A stretch of 64,000 nucleotides of DNA, from positions 5,408,001-5,472,000 of the forward strand of contig OZ242311.1 of NCBI GenBank assembly GCA_965207885.1, read 5' to 3'. The notes under the pieces were generated by a model, which saw nothing but the letters and a program-made list of their open reading frames with translations, was not told the origin of the DNA and made no database searches. Position numbers and translations under genes: made by a program. This document shows, piece after piece, positions 25,271-31,693 of the stretch (positions are counted from its first letter, which is position 1; each line of letters begins with the position of its first letter). Origin of the DNA: Candidatus Latescibacterota bacterium (GTDB taxonomy: Bacteria; Latescibacterota; UBA2968).

Positions 25271-26317
25271 TCACCTGTTGCCCACTCGCCAAACCGTCGC
25301 GCCACCCTGAGCGTCGAGCGCAGCAAGCGCACGTCCATCTGGTCGCCAGTACAAGGCGCTGACAACATCTGCCACAAGCGCAATTCCTATCGGATTGCCT
25401 TGTCCATCGCGCCTGAGTGACCACACAACTACGCCGCCATCCCGAGCTCCCGAGGCCAAGCGCATCCCGCGGTGAGCGAAGGCGAGCTTTGTAACAGTTT
25501 GAACATGAAAATATAGAGTACCGGGCCGCGTGCCTTCGGGACCTCTTCCCTGGAAGCTCCAGACCGTCACCGCCTCGCCTCCACCGGTGGCCAAAAGGGT
25601 GCCAGTGTCATCGAAGGCCAAGGCGGACGGCTTGGCAGGATATCCTGACATCATCGAGTCCTGCTTCGTGGAGCGACGCCAGAAATGCACCGAGTTGTCC
25701 TGGCTGCCGCAGGCCACGATATCCCCGTCCGGGCTCAGTACCATCGACACCAAGGATCCCATCCACTCCAGCTTCTGGCGAAGTTCCCCAGTAGATGCGT
25801 CGAAGAACGTCACCCGACCGTAACAGGCCGTCGCCAACTCCCCTGCGCTGGACCAGGCGATCGCGCTGACGGTGCTGGGATGATCATCAGATCGCCAGAC
25901 TTCTCCGCCGTCCGCACCATACGCGCGAACCTGCCGGGAGCAGGAAGCCGCCAGCCATTGGCCGTCCGGCGACCACGCCACGTTCTCCACCCAATCGCTG
26001 CCGACGTCGATAGCCTGTTTTACCTGACCTTCGGCGACACCCCAGATAAGGACTCGTCCGTCCTGGCCAGCCGTAGCGAACGCGGTTCCGCTTGGGTGGA
26101 TCGCCATCGCGAGCACGCCGCCATCATGCCCTCTCTGCCGGGCCCAGGCGCTTGCGCCGGACTTGCCGTCGAACGCGTAGATGCCACCCGCGGCGTCACT
26201 GACCACCAGTGCCTCACCGCGGAGGGTCCAGCCCCCGGCGATGGCGTAGTCGCCGACCGCCGCAGACCAGCCCCGGCGAAGAACACCCTTTGAGCTGACG
26301 ACATTCAAATCAGACAT
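25271..26317 (-). CDS. WD40-repeat beta-propeller protein
   Basis: Repeated units such as ATAGQDGRVLIW, AWSPDG, CGSQDNSVHFW, ASGARDGGVVVW. Confidence 0.88.
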   Translation of the reverse strand: MSDLNVVSSKGVLRRGWSAAVGDYAIAGGWTLRGEALVVSDAAGGIYAFDGKSGASAWARQRGHDGGVLAMAIHPSGTAFATAGQDGRVLIWGVAEGQVKQAIDVGSDWVENVAWSPDGQWLAASCSRQVRAYGADGGEVWRSDDHPSTVSAIAWSSAGELATACYGRVTFFDASTGELRQKLEWMGSLVSMVLSPDGDIVACGSQDNSVHFWRRSTKQDSMMSGYPAKPSALAFDDTGTLLATGGGEAVTVWSFQGRGPEGTRPGTLYFHVQTVTKLAFAHRGMRLASGARDGGVVVWSLRRDGQGNPIGIALVADVVSALYWRPDGRALAALDAQGGATVWRVGNR

Positions 26318-27651
26318 GCCTCGAATCCCTGCCGCATGCTCTGCTCATCGAGGTTGCGGCCGATGAAGACGAGCTGATTGCGCCGGGGCGAGTCTCCCCA
26401 TGGACGCTCCGGCTGGCCGTCAAAGAGCATGTGAACCCCCTGGAAGACGAAGCGACACGACTCACCCGCGAGGCTGATGAAGCCCTTCATTCGGAAGATG
26501 TCCACCCCGCGCTCACGGAGCAGTTCGCCAAGCCAGACGTCGAGCCTTTCGGAATCTACGTCGCCGTCCATCTCGATCGCGATAGAGCCCACCTCGTCGT
26601 CGTGCTCGTGCTGTGCGACCCAGGTGCGCTCGACCTCTTGCTTGATTGTCGCTCCTTCCGCGTTCGTCAGTTGGAGATCGAACTCCTCCGCGGTGTGCTG
26701 GGCGTAGAGGCCAATCCGCATCTGCGTATCGACCTCCAGGAAGAACGACTTGCGCCCTGCGGAATCGAGCCGGAGGTTCACATGCTTTCCGACAGGAATC
26801 TCTTCCCCCGGGCGAATGAGGTCCGCAGGTTCGGCGTACCGCCGCACACTCCACTCCGCACCCTCACGGAGGGCAGCGTCATCCGTGCCCTGGTCGGACA
26901 CGACGACGAGCGACATCGTCGGATCAGGTCCATCGGCGAGGCTGAGTTCGTAGCGGCCGATATCGAGCGAATAGACGCCAGTCCATTCGAACGGATACTC
27001 CGGCTCGAGGAAGGCGGGACGACGCTCGAGCACCTGATCCAGGTCGAAGGCACCGAGGTTGAGTACCGTGTCCAGGGAGACGTTCGCCCGCTCGCTACGC
27101 ACGACTTGCGCCATTCGGTTCATGTCCTGGATCCGAGCCTCGATCCTGTCGAGCACCCCGCCGTTGACGAGGTCCGTCTTGTTAAGAACAAGGACGTCTG
27201 CGAACGCGATCTGTTCCGTGCTCTCGTCGCTTCGTCCGAGTTGCTGCTCGATGTGGGCTGCGTCAACGAGCGTGACGATCCCGTCAAGCGCGAACTCCGC
27301 GCGAATCTCGTCGTCCATGAAAAAGGTTTGAGCGACCGGACCGGGATCGGCGAGCCCTGTGGTCTCCACCAACACGTAGTCGAACTTGTCTCGGCGCTTC
27401 ATGAGGTTGCCGAGCACGCGAATCAGGTCTCCGCGCACCGTGCAGCAGATGCAGCCGTTCGACATTTCGAAGATCTCCTCGTCAGCATTTATGACAAGCT
27501 CATGATCGATGCCGACCTCCCCGTATTCGTTCTCGATCACGGCAATGCGCTTGCCGTGCTCCTCACTCAAGATCCGGTTGAGCAGGGTCGTCTTGCCAGA
27601 GCCGAGGAAGCCGGTGAGGATGGAAACAGGTACTTTTCGCGGTGTGTTCAT
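26305..27651 (-). CDS. COG0523/CobW family GTPase with internal insertion
   Basis: [50 protein letters not shown]. Confidence 0.9.
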   Translation of the reverse strand: MNTPRKVPVSILTGFLGSGKTTLLNRILSEEHGKRIAVIENEYGEVGIDHELVINADEEIFEMSNGCICCTVRGDLIRVLGNLMKRRDKFDYVLVETTGLADPGPVAQTFFMDDEIRAEFALDGIVTLVDAAHIEQQLGRSDESTEQIAFADVLVLNKTDLVNGGVLDRIEARIQDMNRMAQVVRSERANVSLDTVLNLGAFDLDQVLERRPAFLEPEYPFEWTGVYSLDIGRYELSLADGPDPTMSLVVVSDQGTDDAALREGAEWSVRRYAEPADLIRPGEEIPVGKHVNLRLDSAGRKSFFLEVDTQMRIGLYAQHTAEEFDLQLTNAEGATIKQEVERTWVAQHEHDDEVGSIAIEMDGDVDSERLDVWLGELLRERGVDIFRMKGFISLAGESCRFVFQGVHMLFDGQPERPWGDSPRRNQLVFIGRNLDEQSMRQGFEACLI

Positions 27652-27710: not shown

Positions 27711-29045
27711 TCAGACAGCGAGACCAGCCCGGATGAGCCACGGTTTCGACAGCCCTTCTGCCGTAGATCCATCGAAGAGCAACCGCCGGTCTCGCAGTAA
27801 GACGACGCGCGTTGCCTGGGGTGGCAGTGAATGAAGGCAGTGGGTTGCCCAGACGCACGTTGCGCTCGTCCGACGAACAGACTCTACAACGAGCGTGCGA
27901 AGCTCATGGGCCGCGACGGGATCAAGCCCGGCCGTGGGCTCGTCGAGGAGCAGCAACGCGGGCTCGAGCACCAGGAGACCGGCGAGCGCAACCCGGCGTT
28001 GCTCCCCGAAGCTGAGCTGATGACACGGACGCTCCAGCAGATGGTCTATGCGCAAAGCCATCGCCACCTCGCGGGATCGACATTGCGCCTCGCCTGCCTC
28101 AACGCCACGACAAAGCAGGCCCCAAGCAATGTCCTCGGCGACGGTGCTTGCGATGAAGTGGTGTTCTGGGTTCTGGTCGAGAAGCGCCACGCGTCCGTGG
28201 AGCCGAGCGCGGAGCGTCGCATCGGGCGACACGTGGTTTCCGAGGCGAGTCATGGTCCCTTGCGCGGGTCCGTCGAGCCCCGCGAGCAGACGCAATAAGC
28301 TCGTTTTCCCGGCTCCACTTGGCCCACACACGAGCAGCCACTCCGCTCTTGCCAAGCGAAGTTCGAGTTGCTCAAGCACCAACTGCCCACTGCGTTCGAC
28401 GTCGATGGCATCGAGGTGGACGCCGTCATGAGCCCGAACGTCTTCGCAGGAGGCACCACGCAGCAGTGCGTTCTCCTCGGCACGTTCGAGGCGCGCGAAG
28501 GCATGCAGGGCACCTTCGCCGAGCAGCGGTCCCCAGGCGGCCAGAGGCAAACGCGGGGACCCCAGACGGAGGCGGGCCGCGTCACGCCGCTGGACCCACT
28601 CACGCTGGGTAAGAACACCGTGCATGAGCGCGTGGTCAAGACTGGCCACGACGCCCTCAGGAATCCGAAGCCAGAGCAGGAGTTGTCGCAGCGACGCCCA
28701 GTCAACCTGGGTGCCAAGCCAGAGGATCCAGATAACACCACACAAGACCCTGGTGCTCGTTTGGACGATGATATCCGCGTTGGAATCCAGGGCGACCCCA
28801 CCAAGCAGTGCGAGCGCCACGAGGGCCAACATCCACGCGAGGGCAGGCTTAATCCTTCGGCGTCCACGGGCATGTGCGAACAGCAGAAGCACCGCGGCGA
28901 TCCCTGAGCCGATCAGGGACAAGGTGGTACTGCGTGCGCCTGCGTTGACGATCAGTACGCTGCTGGTCAGCGCGATACCCAATGCCGCAACCCATAGCGG
29001 TTGGCGGCGCTCGAAGAACAAAGAGTGCTCAGCGTGGAGGTGTAT
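27711..29045 (-). CDS. Fused ECF transmembrane (CbiQ-like) and ATPase (CbiO-like) component; start uncertain (ATA 29045 or TTG 29021)
   Basis: Hydrophobic N-half with AARLR and ALLRG coupling motifs; C-half GPSGAGKT, QNPE, LSFGEQRR, LLDEPT. Confidence 0.8.
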   Translation of the reverse strand: MHLHAEHSLFFERRQPLWVAALGIALTSSVLIVNAGARSTTLSLIGSGIAAVLLLFAHARGRRRIKPALAWMLALVALALLGGVALDSNADIIVQTSTRVLCGVIWILWLGTQVDWASLRQLLLWLRIPEGVVASLDHALMHGVLTQREWVQRRDAARLRLGSPRLPLAAWGPLLGEGALHAFARLERAEENALLRGASCEDVRAHDGVHLDAIDVERSGQLVLEQLELRLARAEWLLVCGPSGAGKTSLLRLLAGLDGPAQGTMTRLGNHVSPDATLRARLHGRVALLDQNPEHHFIASTVAEDIAWGLLCRGVEAGEAQCRSREVAMALRIDHLLERPCHQLSFGEQRRVALAGLLVLEPALLLLDEPTAGLDPVAAHELRTLVVESVRRTSATCVWATHCLHSLPPQATRVVLLRDRRLLFDGSTAEGLSKPWLIRAGLAV

Positions 29046-29334
29046 CGCGCCCTCCTCCGAGCACTCGTTCCCAGCAGCGCCCTGCGATAAATCCCAATCC
29101 GAAGAGTATGAGGATCGACATCGCGAGCCCGATCTCCCCCTGGCTCAGGTCGAAGATGCTCTCTGTGGGCGGTCGCCCCGCCTCCTCCGCGGTCGCACCG
29201 AATACGGTTCCGTCAATGCCTTCATAGCCGCATCCCGACAGGCCGATCACGAGCAACAGAAGCATGATGGACGCAAGGGGCGCGGACACGGTGCGAAGCT
29301 TCCTCAGTGCATCTCGGCAAAAAAAATTGTGCAT
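29029..29334 (-). CDS. CbiN-like domain; 3' part of the interrupted cbiMN fusion
   Basis: Two transmembrane helices around a YEGIDG loop; the first residues come from the inserted element. Confidence 0.65.
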   Translation of the reverse strand: MHNFFCRDALRKLRTVSAPLASIMLLLLVIGLSGCGYEGIDGTVFGATAEEAGRPPTESIFDLSQGEIGLAMSILILFGLGFIAGRCWERVLGGGRDTPPR

Positions 29335-29466
29335 ATAAATCCTATGTCATTACGGCATGGTTTAAGCCGCCTGTCTGCCAACAGACAGGCAATCCAGAAG
29401 TTTTTAAACCGTCAGTGTGCAAGAATGACGGCAATCTATATGCTGAAAGACTTACGCCACGATACA
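29308..29466. mobile_element. 159 bp MITE/REP-like non-autonomous insertion
   Basis: CTCAG direct repeats at 29303-29307 and 29467-29471; imperfect inverted ends TGCATCTCGGC / GCCACGATACA; nested internal dyads; AT-richer than flanks; removal restores one reading frame. Confidence 0.85.
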
Positions 29467-30116
29467 CTCAGCGAATTCGGCAGGAGGTCTGGCCGACGTG
29501 TGACCAACAGCCGTACAATGCCGACGGAGGCGACGGCTTCAAGAACCGCCAAGGGGATCTGGACAGGGGCAAACCCGAGCAGCACCGCGGCGAAGGTCGT
29601 CGCAGGCGCCGTCACATCGGACAACGCCACGGCAAGCACCGCGGCGTCTGCCACATATACGCTCAGGCCGCCGACGCCACATGCGAAAGCGAGGCGAAAA
29701 GCCCCGTCTATACCGAGCCGCCGGAGCAAAGCCCAAAGCCCAACGGTCGTCAGAGGCCCCAGCAGTCCGAGCGTCAGGGTGTTGACCCCCAGCGTCGTGA
29801 GCCCGCCGTGAGCGAAGAAGACCGCCTGCAGCAAGAGCACGAAGAACGTGGGCCACACGATGCGGCGGACGCCGACAACCAGGGCGAGCACCGGCGTAAG
29901 GCAGATGTGACTGGTTGCGCCCACGACGGGGACTGGTAGCGGTAGCAGAGTGCCGGCAAAGAGCAGGCTCGTGGCGCCCGCCATGATGACCGAGGACGAC
30001 GGTGTGTTGCGTCGCGTTCGTTGCTCTTCACGAAGGCTCCAAAAGACAGTGGGGGCGGCCAGGGCACTCCACGCGATGGCTTGGCTGAGCGGAAGCACAC
30101 CTTCTGATAGATGCAT
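29436..30116 (-). CDS. cbiM: ECF cobalt/nickel S component CbiM; 5' part of the interrupted fusion
   Basis: N-terminal MHLSEG metal motif, TSHIC, LLLQAVFFAHGGLTTLGVN, FAPVQIPLAVLE. Confidence 0.88.
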   Translation of the reverse strand: MHLSEGVLPLSQAIAWSALAAPTVFWSLREEQRTRRNTPSSSVIMAGATSLLFAGTLLPLPVPVVGATSHICLTPVLALVVGVRRIVWPTFFVLLLQAVFFAHGGLTTLGVNTLTLGLLGPLTTVGLWALLRRLGIDGAFRLAFACGVGGLSVYVADAAVLAVALSDVTAPATTFAAVLLGFAPVQIPLAVLEAVASVGIVRLLVTRRPDLLPNSLSVSWRKSFSI

Positions 30117-30550
30117 CAGCCCCCTCCTTGATGTTGATGTGATGCCGCATTGCCACACGCATCACAGGTTCCGAGCAATACCACCTCATGTCCCGTCATC
30201 TGAAACCCGTCTGGAACCAGAGAATCGAGGCCCTCGACGCAACCGAAGAGGTCAAACGCGTGGTCGCAGGTCGAGCAAAGAAAGTGATGGTGATGCTCGC
30301 GGTCCTTGGGCTCGTACCGAACGCCGCGGCCCAACCCCTCGACCGACTCCAGCGTGCCTTCCTCAACACCCCGTTGGAGCGCGCGGTATACCGTGGCGAG
30401 ACCGACACTCTCTCCGCTTCCGCTCAGGCGGCTCCACAGTTCCTTGGCGGATAGGGGGCCGTCCGCTTCGCTAAGGGCTCGCAAGACGGTTAGCTGCTGC
30501 TTCGCTCTTTGCTGCTGCTTCGCTCTCTGTTGTTGATTTACTCTTTGCAT
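30116..30550 (-). CDS. Fur family regulator (Zur/Nur-like)
   Basis: GLATVYRAL, HHHHFLCSTC, GTCDAC; 18 nt tandem repeat (QQQRAK x2) at the N-terminus. Confidence 0.9.
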   Translation of the reverse strand: MQRVNQQQRAKQQQRAKQQLTVLRALSEADGPLSAKELWSRLSGSGESVGLATVYRALQRGVEEGTLESVEGLGRGVRYEPKDREHHHHFLCSTCDHAFDLFGCVEGLDSLVPDGFQMTGHEVVLLGTCDACGNAASHQHQGGG

Positions 30551-30585
30551 GAAGAAATGATAATCAATTCTCACATTACTGTCAA
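30551..30585 (-). promoter_or_regulatory. Leaderless sigma-70 promoter with overlapping Fur/Zur-type box
   Basis: TTGACA, 17 nt, TATCAT, 6 nt, ATG. Dyad TGAGAAT-TG-ATTATCA overlaps the spacer and -10. Confidence 0.75.
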
Positions 30586-30899
30586 GACTTAATGGGTGAC
30601 TACTCCCAACACTAAAGCTGTTGGGTTTTACGGGCTTTTCGGATAAAACCGTACACAACGGGTGCATCAACGACCCGAAATGACGGCAGATGGTTGAGAA
30701 AACAGATCAAACGCAGAAAGGACGATCAAACAACCGGCAGGGAACTGCCTTGAACTGACCTCTGAAAGTCAATCAATGTTCATATTCATTTACAAATATT
30801 TACAGGGAACCCAACCGCCCTTCACAATGTTTAATTTAGACAAATGCCATAAACGGTTATATTTTGACGTGTCTCGGATAGCAAAAAAGGAGTGATCCA

Positions 30900-31688
30900 A
30901 TGCACACCAGATGGTTTTTCCTCTTAGCACTGTTCCTTACTGCCTGCATAGGTCCGTTAGACCCGAACAATTCCGAATACATTGAAATACAAGAAGTAAC
31001 CGTCGGTCCTGCTCTGGCCAGATGCTACGGCGTCGGCGAACAGACCTGCATGATCGTTGACGGCTCATTGTTCTACGACAGCATAGAAGGCTTCAACTTC
31101 GAAGCGGGCTACAACTATCGTCTGCGGATCGGCAAATACGATCCCTATAATGGAGAAGAACCCCCGCAGGATGCTGGCCAATACAGTTATCGCCTGCTGG
31201 AACAAATAGAAAAAACCCCTGCGCCATCCACTCCGACAACCTTATCTGTGGGACCGACGCGGGTAAAATGCGAGCAAAGGGACGACTTTTGCCTGCTGAT
31301 TAACGGTGCGTCATACTACGACATCATCACCGACTTTGAGTACGAAGCCGGGTATCACTATACCCTCAATGCAAACCAATACAGCGATGGCCGATATGTA
31401 TTGACTGAAATAGCCTCAAAAACCGAAGTAACGGGCACAGAAGAAGAAATAACCGTAGGACCACACAGAACCTCATGCGGCGACAACGACTCCGTGTACT
31501 GCAACGTCATCAATGGCGAAGCCTCCCGCAGTGAAATCGTGAACTTCCAGCCCCGGCACAACTACAGCTACCGTCTGCGAGTCGAACGATTCGACATGTT
31601 TACCAACAACACAACCCCGCCGTCATCCAACATCCCAACCTACGGCTATCGCTGGCTGGAAACACTCGAGCAAAACACCAATAATTGA
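30900..31688 (+). CDS. Lipoprotein with three DUF4377-like repeats
   Basis: Lipobox LTAC; three units of the form TVGP-x3-C...C...I..F.(Y/F)EAGY.Y.L. Confidence 0.8.
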   Translation: MHTRWFFLLALFLTACIGPLDPNNSEYIEIQEVTVGPALARCYGVGEQTCMIVDGSLFYDSIEGFNFEAGYNYRLRIGKYDPYNGEEPPQDAGQYSYRLLEQIEKTPAPSTPTTLSVGPTRVKCEQRDDFCLLINGASYYDIITDFEYEAGYHYTLNANQYSDGRYVLTEIASKTEVTGTEEEITVGPHRTSCGDNDSVYCNVINGEASRSEIVNFQPRHNYSYRLRVERFDMFTNNTTPPSSNIPTYGYRWLETLEQNTNN

Positions 31689-31693
31689 AGTCC

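Follow-up and report, generated by a model that had tools for sequence, protein, structure and literature searches.

In the genome of a Candidatus Latescibacterota bacterium, a stretch of 64,000 nt (contig OZ242311.1, positions 5,408,001 to 5,472,000; hereafter the window) contains a 159-bp miniature inverted-repeat transposable element (MITE) derived from an IS630-family insertion sequence (IS), which divides a formerly fused cbiM-N gene in two. The insertion interrupts the linker that joins the CbiM domain to a C-terminal domain with two predicted helices. With its stops in all three frames and an in-frame outward ATG 27 nt from its tip, the element would have converted, in one event, an open reading frame (ORF) of 307 aa into two, one for CbiM (226 aa) and one for an N-type protein (101 aa), resulting in the two-gene layout found in most Cbi/Nik systems. 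The gene was fused in the ancestor, the insertion is inherited in five congeneric alleles, and both frames remain open and under purifying selection. We infer that both halves are likely made and used, and that the event was probably a tolerated gene fission, functional rather than decayed.

All coordinates refer to the window, in which the split genes lie on the minus strand. The MITE occupies positions 29308..29466 and is flanked by two copies of the pentamer CTCAG (CTGAG on the coding strand), one on the cbiM side (29467..29471) and one on the cbiN side (29303..29307). Upstream of the element, cbiM (29436..30116) retains residues 1-216 as native sequence, followed by ten MITE-encoded codons (SVSWRKSFSI) and a MITE-encoded TAG stop (29436..29438), so that the coding strand reads ...CCG AAT TCG CTG AG/T GTA TCG TGG CGT AAG TCT TTC AGC ATA TAG, with the slash marking the element boundary. 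Near the other end of the element, a Shine-Dalgarno-like AGGA motif (29340..29343, minus strand) stands five nucleotides (TTTAT) before the new ATG (29332..29334, minus strand). The N-type ORF with two predicted helices that starts there (29029..29334, minus strand, 101 aa) comprises nine MITE codons (MHNFFCRDA) and then native sequence from CTG AGG AAG CTT, its 92 native codons corresponding to residues 216-307 of the former fused protein. The peptides expected of the split form are MHNFFCRDALRK... (N-terminal, starting at 29334) and ...NSLSVSWRKSFSI. These features were placed from the ORF list and the sequence, together with the family alignment, the homologue alignments and the predicted RNA fold.

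Deleting the element together with one repeat removes 164 nt (2 mod 3) and thereby joins the cbiM frame (lowest codon base 0 mod 3) to the downstream frame (1 mod 3). The restored frame reads ...CTG CCG AAT TCG CTG AGG AAG CTT CGC ACC GTG (LPNSLRKLRTV) across the junction. A preliminary description of the window had proposed this arrangement, and all its coordinates for the element, the repeats, the 164-nt excision, the stop and the AGGA-N5-ATG are correct; its claim that the element itself supplies stop, ribosome-binding motif and start is borne out by the ORF list, the sequence and all five split alleles. The GC content falls to 44-50% across 29250-29499, compared with 60-69% on either side.

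The upstream product is assigned to CbiM, the metal-specific S component of group-I energy-coupling factor (ECF) transporters, by a match to PF01891 (E 1.3e-36) that spans model positions 1-205 of 205 and is thus full-length, and by a match to 5X3X chain M (E 3.7e-22). The N-terminal Met-His (M1 and H2) is invariant in 23 sequences. The NCBIfam cbiM models also match, under their equivalog cut-offs.

Comparison with homologues identifies the ancestral gene as a single fused ORF of about 307 aa. The 120 best matches to the CbiM part include 112 single proteins of 304-326 aa, mostly 307 aa; the remainder are two clusters of the 226-aa window type and six proteins of 236-249 aa. The best homologues cover 93-100% of the CbiM query (mostly 96%), in most cases everything except the element-encoded tail. 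When aligned, the intact forms read ...RRPDLLPNSLR-RLRTVSAP... (PDLLPNSLR(K/R)LRTVSAP) uninterrupted through the insertion site, and an open ORF of 304-310 aa is present in the genomic DNA at 40 of 42 loci (L053-L094).

The two 100-nt flanks of the window element were searched separately by BLAST against 47 loci (L051-L097). Their matches overlap by exactly 5 nt in 31 of these loci, corresponding to one pentamer at the empty site, and this pentamer is CTGAG in 22 of the 31. Among the other loci, six have the flanks abutting with one extra codon, three carry the element, and seven are without one or both flank matches. Both the empty site and the 5-bp duplication are directly observed here. The preliminary description had expected uninterrupted orthologues of about 307 aa; because this is the commonest length among the intact homologues, and because the empty site is present in 31 loci, the layout lies beyond chance. 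A search for an empty allele of this lineage among the contigs of four public runs yielded no joint that skips the element, with uncovered parts counting as no evidence. Two contigs of run X6 end at 29467 and continue into diverged intact-type sequence, which most simply comes from other taxa.

Shortened homologues were also seen. Most of the N-type domain is gone from L087 (249 aa), L090 (237 aa) and proteins P0060, P0062, P0069, P0071, P0077 and P0087; L090 has an in-frame internal deletion (...RTVSAPLA/FGKGRDALPR). The homologues of 236-249 aa may represent independent loss of the N part.

Four congeners (G002, G008, G009 and G020) share this element, its site and its orientation with the window, at 94.8-97.4% identity over 651 bp, gap-free. 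The block fur-cbiM-MITE-cbiN-cbiQO-cobW is syntenic over ~4.6 kb in G002, G009 and G020, where the flanking ABC-transporter genes match too, and over ~2.7 kb, the extent of the fetched loci, in G008. From a further genome, G007, there is only a 54-residue cbiM fragment, truncated where the contig ends. A maximum-likelihood tree built on 47 rows of M-domain DNA groups the five split alleles in one clade (99/95 support), whose neighbours are intact alleles of metagenome-assembled genomes (MAGs) labelled Acidobacteriota, other Latescibacterota, Gammaproteobacteria and others. Since the spacer-bearing alleles of the four congeners form one clade with the window allele, the phylogeny places a single, inherited insertion in the common ancestor of the five congeneric alleles.

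Had separate genes with the spacer been ancestral and the 307-aa forms arisen by spacer loss, one would expect the nearest orthologues to carry the spacer, and all four do. This history is nevertheless extremely improbable: the split alleles group as a single shallow clade amid many intact ones from several phyla, the spacer is a member of a repeat family of the genus with inverted ends and flank duplications, its GC content is 43% within an operon of 61%, and the intact forms hold exactly one copy of the duplicated pentamer. Orthologues with separate genes and this same spacer had been named in the preliminary description as the finding that would speak against an insertion; those encountered are the four congeners of the window clade, and the distant orthologues have the empty site. 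A chimeric join, a misassembled repeat or another assembly or sequencing artefact is hardly conceivable, as the same structure occurs in five separate genome assemblies and contigs of four public runs from three studies bridge the element.

By its ends, flanks and relatives, the element is a true MITE of an IS630-family IS, and the inverted ends, flank duplication, dispersed copies and matching IS all uphold the identity first proposed for it. It has no transposase ORF, and its stops lie in all three frames in the mRNA orientation. The 16-nt inverted ends follow the pattern TGCATCKYGGC..AAG. In the family alignment (32 copies), one end reads TGCATC(T/G)(C/T)GGCAAAAG and the other ...CTTACGCCACGATGCA, the two matching at 12 of 16 positions as counted by eye. 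One end of the window copy carries an additional C>T change: its cbiM-side terminal repeat, TGTATCGTGGCGTAAG on the coding strand (29451..29466), differs in this way from the family TGCATC. The cbiN-side repeat is TGCATCTCGGCAAAAA on the plus strand (29308..29323), delimited by the family alignment and the end pattern.

This end pattern is found 76 (G015), 16, 8, 5 and 4 times in five genomes, compared with 0 for a reversed control. Matches to the element occur in 18 of 21 genomes of the genus, with 78 in G015, 37 in G004 and 23 in G019, and full-length relatives in the genus reach 74-77% identity. The window's own genome (G000) holds only one full copy and one diverged copy (C1:5002739-5002907, nhmmer E 3.8e-9). 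When the query was extended by 40-nt flanks and 31 near-full copies were compared, homology started and stopped within 2-3 nt of the element tips.

The autonomous partner is a 1375-bp IS in G019, present in eight copies at 94-100% identity and bounded by CTAG-TGCATCGTGGCAGAAG...GCCACGATGCA-CTAG, the same ends as those of the MITE. It encodes a 188-aa helix-turn-helix ORF and a 244-aa DDE_3 ORF (PF13358 E 5.7e-26, 91.6 bits against a cut-off of 28.6). The NF033545 transpos_IS630 model matches the two ORFs with E 3.6e-28 and 1.6e-12, each under the 100-bit cut-off because the transposase gene lies in two frames. Each end of the MITE is similar to its counterpart in the IS over about 35 nt, with the ..TATAGATT.. 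and ..TTTATATG.. motifs among the similar parts.

Internally, the element carries a hairpin, CCGTCA-N11-TGACGG (29409..29431), that is common to the L016/L017/L018/L029 subfamily, and a 22-nt palindrome, GCCTGTCTG-CCAA-CAGACAGGC (29369..29390), an additional insert that sets the cbiMN copy apart from all other members of the family. A 26-nt core (29345..29370) is shared with a REP-like hairpin repeat that has 48 copies in G000 at <=4 mismatches. This core forms a GCGGC-loop-GCCGC hairpin, usually followed by AATCCAG and TTTTG, and lies in unrelated contexts in G000 (e.g. C1:508862, 5960150 and 5252116). It also occurs there alone, and the MITE carries this REP-like repeat in its middle. In G015, head-to-tail arrays of 128-150-bp family members share a single CTAG between neighbours (on C1, e.g. 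6291900-6292750, 6236200-6236800 and 721400-722050), and copies nested within copies occur as well. A known riboswitch or small RNA was ruled out as the identity of the spacer: the three matches obtained with Rfam in 28900-30900 at E<=10 were at chance level, and all lay outside the element.

The family is also characterized by its choice of target. Members of the IS630/Tc1-mariner family insert at TA, and this dinucleotide is duplicated. Of the 30 other family copies, 25 have the same four bases on the left as on the right: CTAG in 11, CTAC in seven (four of them in one composite repeat), GTAG in three (with a fourth by eye), ATAG in two, and TTAG and CTAA in one each. Because the outer flank bases co-vary between the two sides, the family normally duplicates 4 bp (NTAN, mostly CTAG). 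The cbiMN copy is the only one with a five-base duplication and no TA, its CTCAG consisting of the usual half-sites plus one extra central base. We take this to be an off-target integration one base wider than normal, in which the pseudo-site CTCAG would have taken the place of the usual CTAG, giving a duplication of 5 bp rather than 4. For RUP and IS630-type elements, a TA dinucleotide is given as both target and duplication in passages of PMC2229807, and a literature search on IS630 with CTAG and target site duplication returned no paper. Duplications of 4 bp at NTAN, and once of 5 bp without TA, bear on the target strictness of this transposase superfamily.

Constraint and retention bear on whether the split gene is functional. 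All five cbiN halves are open, with no stop and no frameshift. G002 has a 6-bp indel in the MITE end and a second 6-bp indel in cbiN, and neither disturbs the frame. The five split alleles do not vary in their TAG, AGGA or ATG, and AGGA is specific to the cbiMN copy, whereas other family copies have AAGA. Among the five alleles, the ratio of non-synonymous to synonymous change (dN/dS, Nei-Gojobori) is 0.26 for cbiM, 0.46 for cbiN, 0.20 for the neighbouring cbiQO and 0.19 for cobW. For reference, 31 intact genes of 307 aa (373 pairs with a synonymous difference, pS, of 0.03-0.35) give 0.22 for the M domain and 0.40 for the N domain. On these values the N part has always been the looser one, with no extra relaxation after the split. 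The variable sites of cbiN comprise 11 synonymous and 13 non-synonymous states (binomial P=0.034 for fewer non-synonymous changes than neutral), and its change ratio is not different from that of cbiM (Fisher P=0.20). Furthermore, contigs of 501 nt and 609 nt from RNA libraries (two runs, same study) extend from the cbiM end through the MITE into cbiN, with 5-6 differences. A promoter and terminator scan found no such site inside the MITE.

The preliminary description had left two options, inactivation or a functional fission. The open frames and the unchanged dN/dS lean toward the second and away from the first, without amounting to proof. Under inactivation, the MITE would have truncated CbiM-N, the 101-aa frame would be untranslated or useless, the low dN/dS would reflect the short time elapsed, and CbiM alone, or nothing, would work. 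We regard this as rather unlikely, as the start, the ribosome-binding motif and the open frame are kept in five alleles, both indels preserve the frame, and the constraint on N and M is the same as in intact genes. The AGGA of this copy alone points in the same direction. In addition, cbiQO and cobW are strongly constrained, and therefore the transporter is in use. In the systems treated in passages of PMC3945884 and PMC7689651, CbiM/NikM require an N protein, Nik(MN) fusions occur naturally, M and N interact only loosely, and the small N partner is normally a separate protein.

How the second half might be translated was approached by RNA folding. The segment 29485..29290 is predicted to fold as one long hairpin with a minimum free energy of -67.8 kcal/mol (z -3.9; none of 200 shuffles as stable). 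The cbiM stop and the cbiN start lie on opposite arms of the subterminal inverted repeat of the element, in which the stop-bearing arm reads ..GCAUAUAG.. and the start-bearing arm ..AUUUAUAUGC... More specifically, the cbiN AUG (29334-32) is predicted to pair with 29440-42, and the cbiM UAG (29438-36) with 29336-38. A terminating ribosome was modelled by keeping all sequence to 13 nt past the cbiM stop single-stranded; with the 5' arm opened in this way, the unpaired probability of the Shine-Dalgarno motif rises to 0.31-0.95. The model suggests that translation of cbiM unmasks cbiN: a ribosome that ends cbiM would free the AUG from its pairing with the codons before UAG, and translation of the second half would probably be coupled to that of the first.

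A gene split of the same design is indicated by the sequence of a second locus, L016 (G019:C1:3392592-3392730). Here, a 139-bp family copy flanked by CTAG interrupts a gene for an ABC permease of the MacB/FtsX type. The frame entering from upstream stays open across the entire element and ends at the TAG of the duplicated CTAG (...FFTEMH-stop), and the downstream half of 367 codons (MHNLFYRDA-LDYLHH...) is in frame with an outward ATG that lies 27 nt from the tip. That outward ATGs are general gene starters in the family was rejected, since they run on far in only 2 of 31 copies, namely L016 (367 codons) and L030 (475 codons, still open where the locus ends). It is conceivable, though on balance doubtful, that the MITE is a portable intercistronic cassette, of which one insertion splits a multidomain gene into two coupled cistrons, and that such splits have been fixed, are functional and have been made more than once.

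Several observations weigh against a functional split brought about by this MITE, and some of them favour inactivation. The selection signal on cbiN is weak, as its marginal P value comes from 24 changes among related, non-independent alleles, and the divergence since insertion is small (pS about 0.065). In the predicted fold, the cbiN AUG has an unpaired probability of 0.0, so that the strong hairpin holding the start codon could equally silence cbiN; even with the 5' arm open, the AUG is just 0.11-0.24 unpaired. The bridging contigs fall short of proving transcription: they are assembled, RNA libraries can contain DNA, and neither strand nor transcript ends are shown by them. The N domain is largely gone from some homologues (L087, L090; 6/120 best matches), and therefore the domain may be dispensable. 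It is not recognisable as CbiN, which makes any argument from CbiN biochemistry one by analogy. With regard to the insertion itself, a target without TA departs from what IS630-type elements normally use, and G000 yielded no partner with either the G019 IS as query (DNA, E<=1e-20) or its DDE protein (E<=1e-5). Because neither was found there, the cbiMN copy is probably immobile now.

The C-terminal domain had been called CbiN-like. This description goes by its position and predicted two-helix layout; membership of the CbiN family is not supported by the profile searches. The 101-aa ORF and four fused homologues have no match to PF02553 (CbiN) at E<=10, and hhalign of 17 N domains against five archaeal N proteins gave a probability of 0.3% (E 0.19). 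Three of these five archaeal proteins were scanned with PF02553, and L103 and L102 score E 8e-27 and 3e-15, with no match for L100. A search of G000 for PF02553 returned a chance-level match elsewhere only (E 0.059), a PDB profile search with the N domain gave no match at E<=10, and the Atlas yielded leads only (0.77-0.80). The domain stands behind CbiM in the same position as in the bona fide CbiM-CbiN fusion L102. Two hydrophobic helices at residues 224-242 and 273-297 of the fused form are seen in a low-confidence model: the predicted structure of an intact fused homologue has a mean pLDDT of 57 and a pTM of 0.57, too poor for a fold search. A predicted complex of CbiM with the N domain scored 0.01 with a 'no answer' verdict, which is no evidence either way.

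The split 101-aa ORF looks like a lipoprotein precursor. A lipobox-like L-S-G-C (GLSGC, 29245-29262, minus strand) follows its first hydrophobic helix, G25 and C26 are invariant in 17 N domains, and NCBIfam gives a weak match to the LptM signal sequence (E 0.0086).

The remaining genes of the block surround the split pair on the same strand. A Fur-family metalloregulator gene (30116..30670, minus strand; Pfam FUR E 9.9e-15, from the ORF list and sequence) is the first gene of the high-GC operon, and its TGA is shared with the cbiM ATG in an ATGA overlap. Downstream of the 101-aa ORF, a 436-aa protein (27711..29021, minus strand) fuses a CbiQ-like N-terminal membrane part, the putative T component, to the CbiO ATPase (ABC_tran E 1.8e-26). 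TIGR01166 cbiO (E 3.6e-39) and ECF_ATPase_2 (E 7e-41) also match, both under curated cut-offs, and the 200-aa N-terminal membrane half has no CbiQ match in Pfam or NCBIfam at E<=0.01. Because T component and ATPase are fused and the ancestral MN was fused as well, the transporter would originally have been a two-gene (MN)(QO) ECF system. Similar QO fusions of 425-430 aa follow cbiM in L098 and L099. A CobW/COG0523-type GTPase (26305..27651, minus strand; cobW E 1.1e-60, CobW_C E 2.1e-25) is, by synteny, the final gene of the block.

The start of the Fur-family gene may lie further downstream than 30670, because the 5' part of its ORF (30500-30670) has a GC content of 38-39%, a QQRAKQQ repeat and poor alignment among the five genomes (140 gap columns), and a sigma-70-like site, TTGACA-17-TATCAT (11/12 matching), lies at 30585..30557 on the minus strand. 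Beyond it, a low-GC stretch of ~0.9-1.0 kb in G000 (30792-31693) contains a 262-aa ORF (30900..31688, plus strand) with a lipoprotein-like N-terminus and three internal repeats; this stretch is missing at the syntenic place in G009, G002 and G020.

The GC content of the operon is 61%, that of the genome 51% and that of the MITE 43%. In the simplest history, a foreign operon arrived with the fused gene, and a resident MITE then inserted. More specifically, an IS630-family MITE native to the genus would have transposed into the stretch coding for a cytoplasmic linker in a horizontally acquired fused cbiM-N. Among MAGs labelled as several phyla (L053-L094), the cbiMN protein is 73-94% identical; the labels include Vicinamibacterales, Holophagales, Bryobacterales, Thermoanaerobaculia, Acidimicrobiales, Gammaproteobacteria, Myxococcota, Latescibacterota and Ca. 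Multivorans. Many of the 373 analysed pairs, which were chosen for a synonymous divergence of 0.03-0.35, lie at ~0.1-0.35. Near-identical sequence is present in runs labelled sponge or marine metagenome. These identities point to recent exchange of the cbiMN operon across phyla and mark the metal transporter as a recently exchanged module.

Gene fission is generally assumed to require no fewer than two lucky changes, first a stop and later a new start provided with a ribosome site. In the present case, a single transposition brought stop, ribosome site and start to a domain boundary, and the split form has survived the divergence of five species. This offers a concrete route by which small mobile elements may remodel operon and domain architecture without destroying function.

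Of the elements described elsewhere, the RUP elements of Streptococcus pneumoniae, which are IS630-mobilised MITEs, are alike in being small and non-coding, with inverted ends matching IS630, many copies and in-frame stops, and both RUP-type MITEs and the window family usually have a target centred on TA (passages of PMC2229807). In contrast to the 2 bp duplicated by RUP, the flanks of the window family co-vary over 4 bp (NTAN), and the window copy has the 5-bp CTCAG with no TA. RUP is described, in those passages of PMC2229807, as intergenic or as inactivating IS genes, and not as dividing a gene into two retained genes. The same source portrays Rickettsia palindromic elements (RPEs) and Correia/NEMIS as hairpin mobile elements that are tolerated in ORFs and add amino acids. 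RPEs differ in that they are read through in frame and leave one protein, whereas the window element ends one ORF and starts another. The literature searched, with subscription journals outside its scope, contained no report of a gene fission made by a MITE.

As for the transporter, the Nik(MN) fusion of Rhodobacter capsulatus and the separate CbiM and CbiN of Salmonella and R. capsulatus likewise have an M component with a Met-His metal-binding end and a small two-helix partner, the helices of the window protein being predicted, and both there and here M and its N partner are fused or separate in nature (passages of PMC3945884 and PMC7689651). The window system is unlike them in its N-type domain without a match to Pfam CbiN or a CbiN profile and in its fused T and A components. 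Its substrate and regulation, with a Fur-family regulator and a COG0523 neighbour encoded alongside, may differ as well. IS630-type MITEs, and MITEs inside ORFs such as RPE and Correia, are known kinds. Different here are a gene junction made within a single multidomain ORF, its retention in five species with unchanged constraint, and a 5-bp target without TA.

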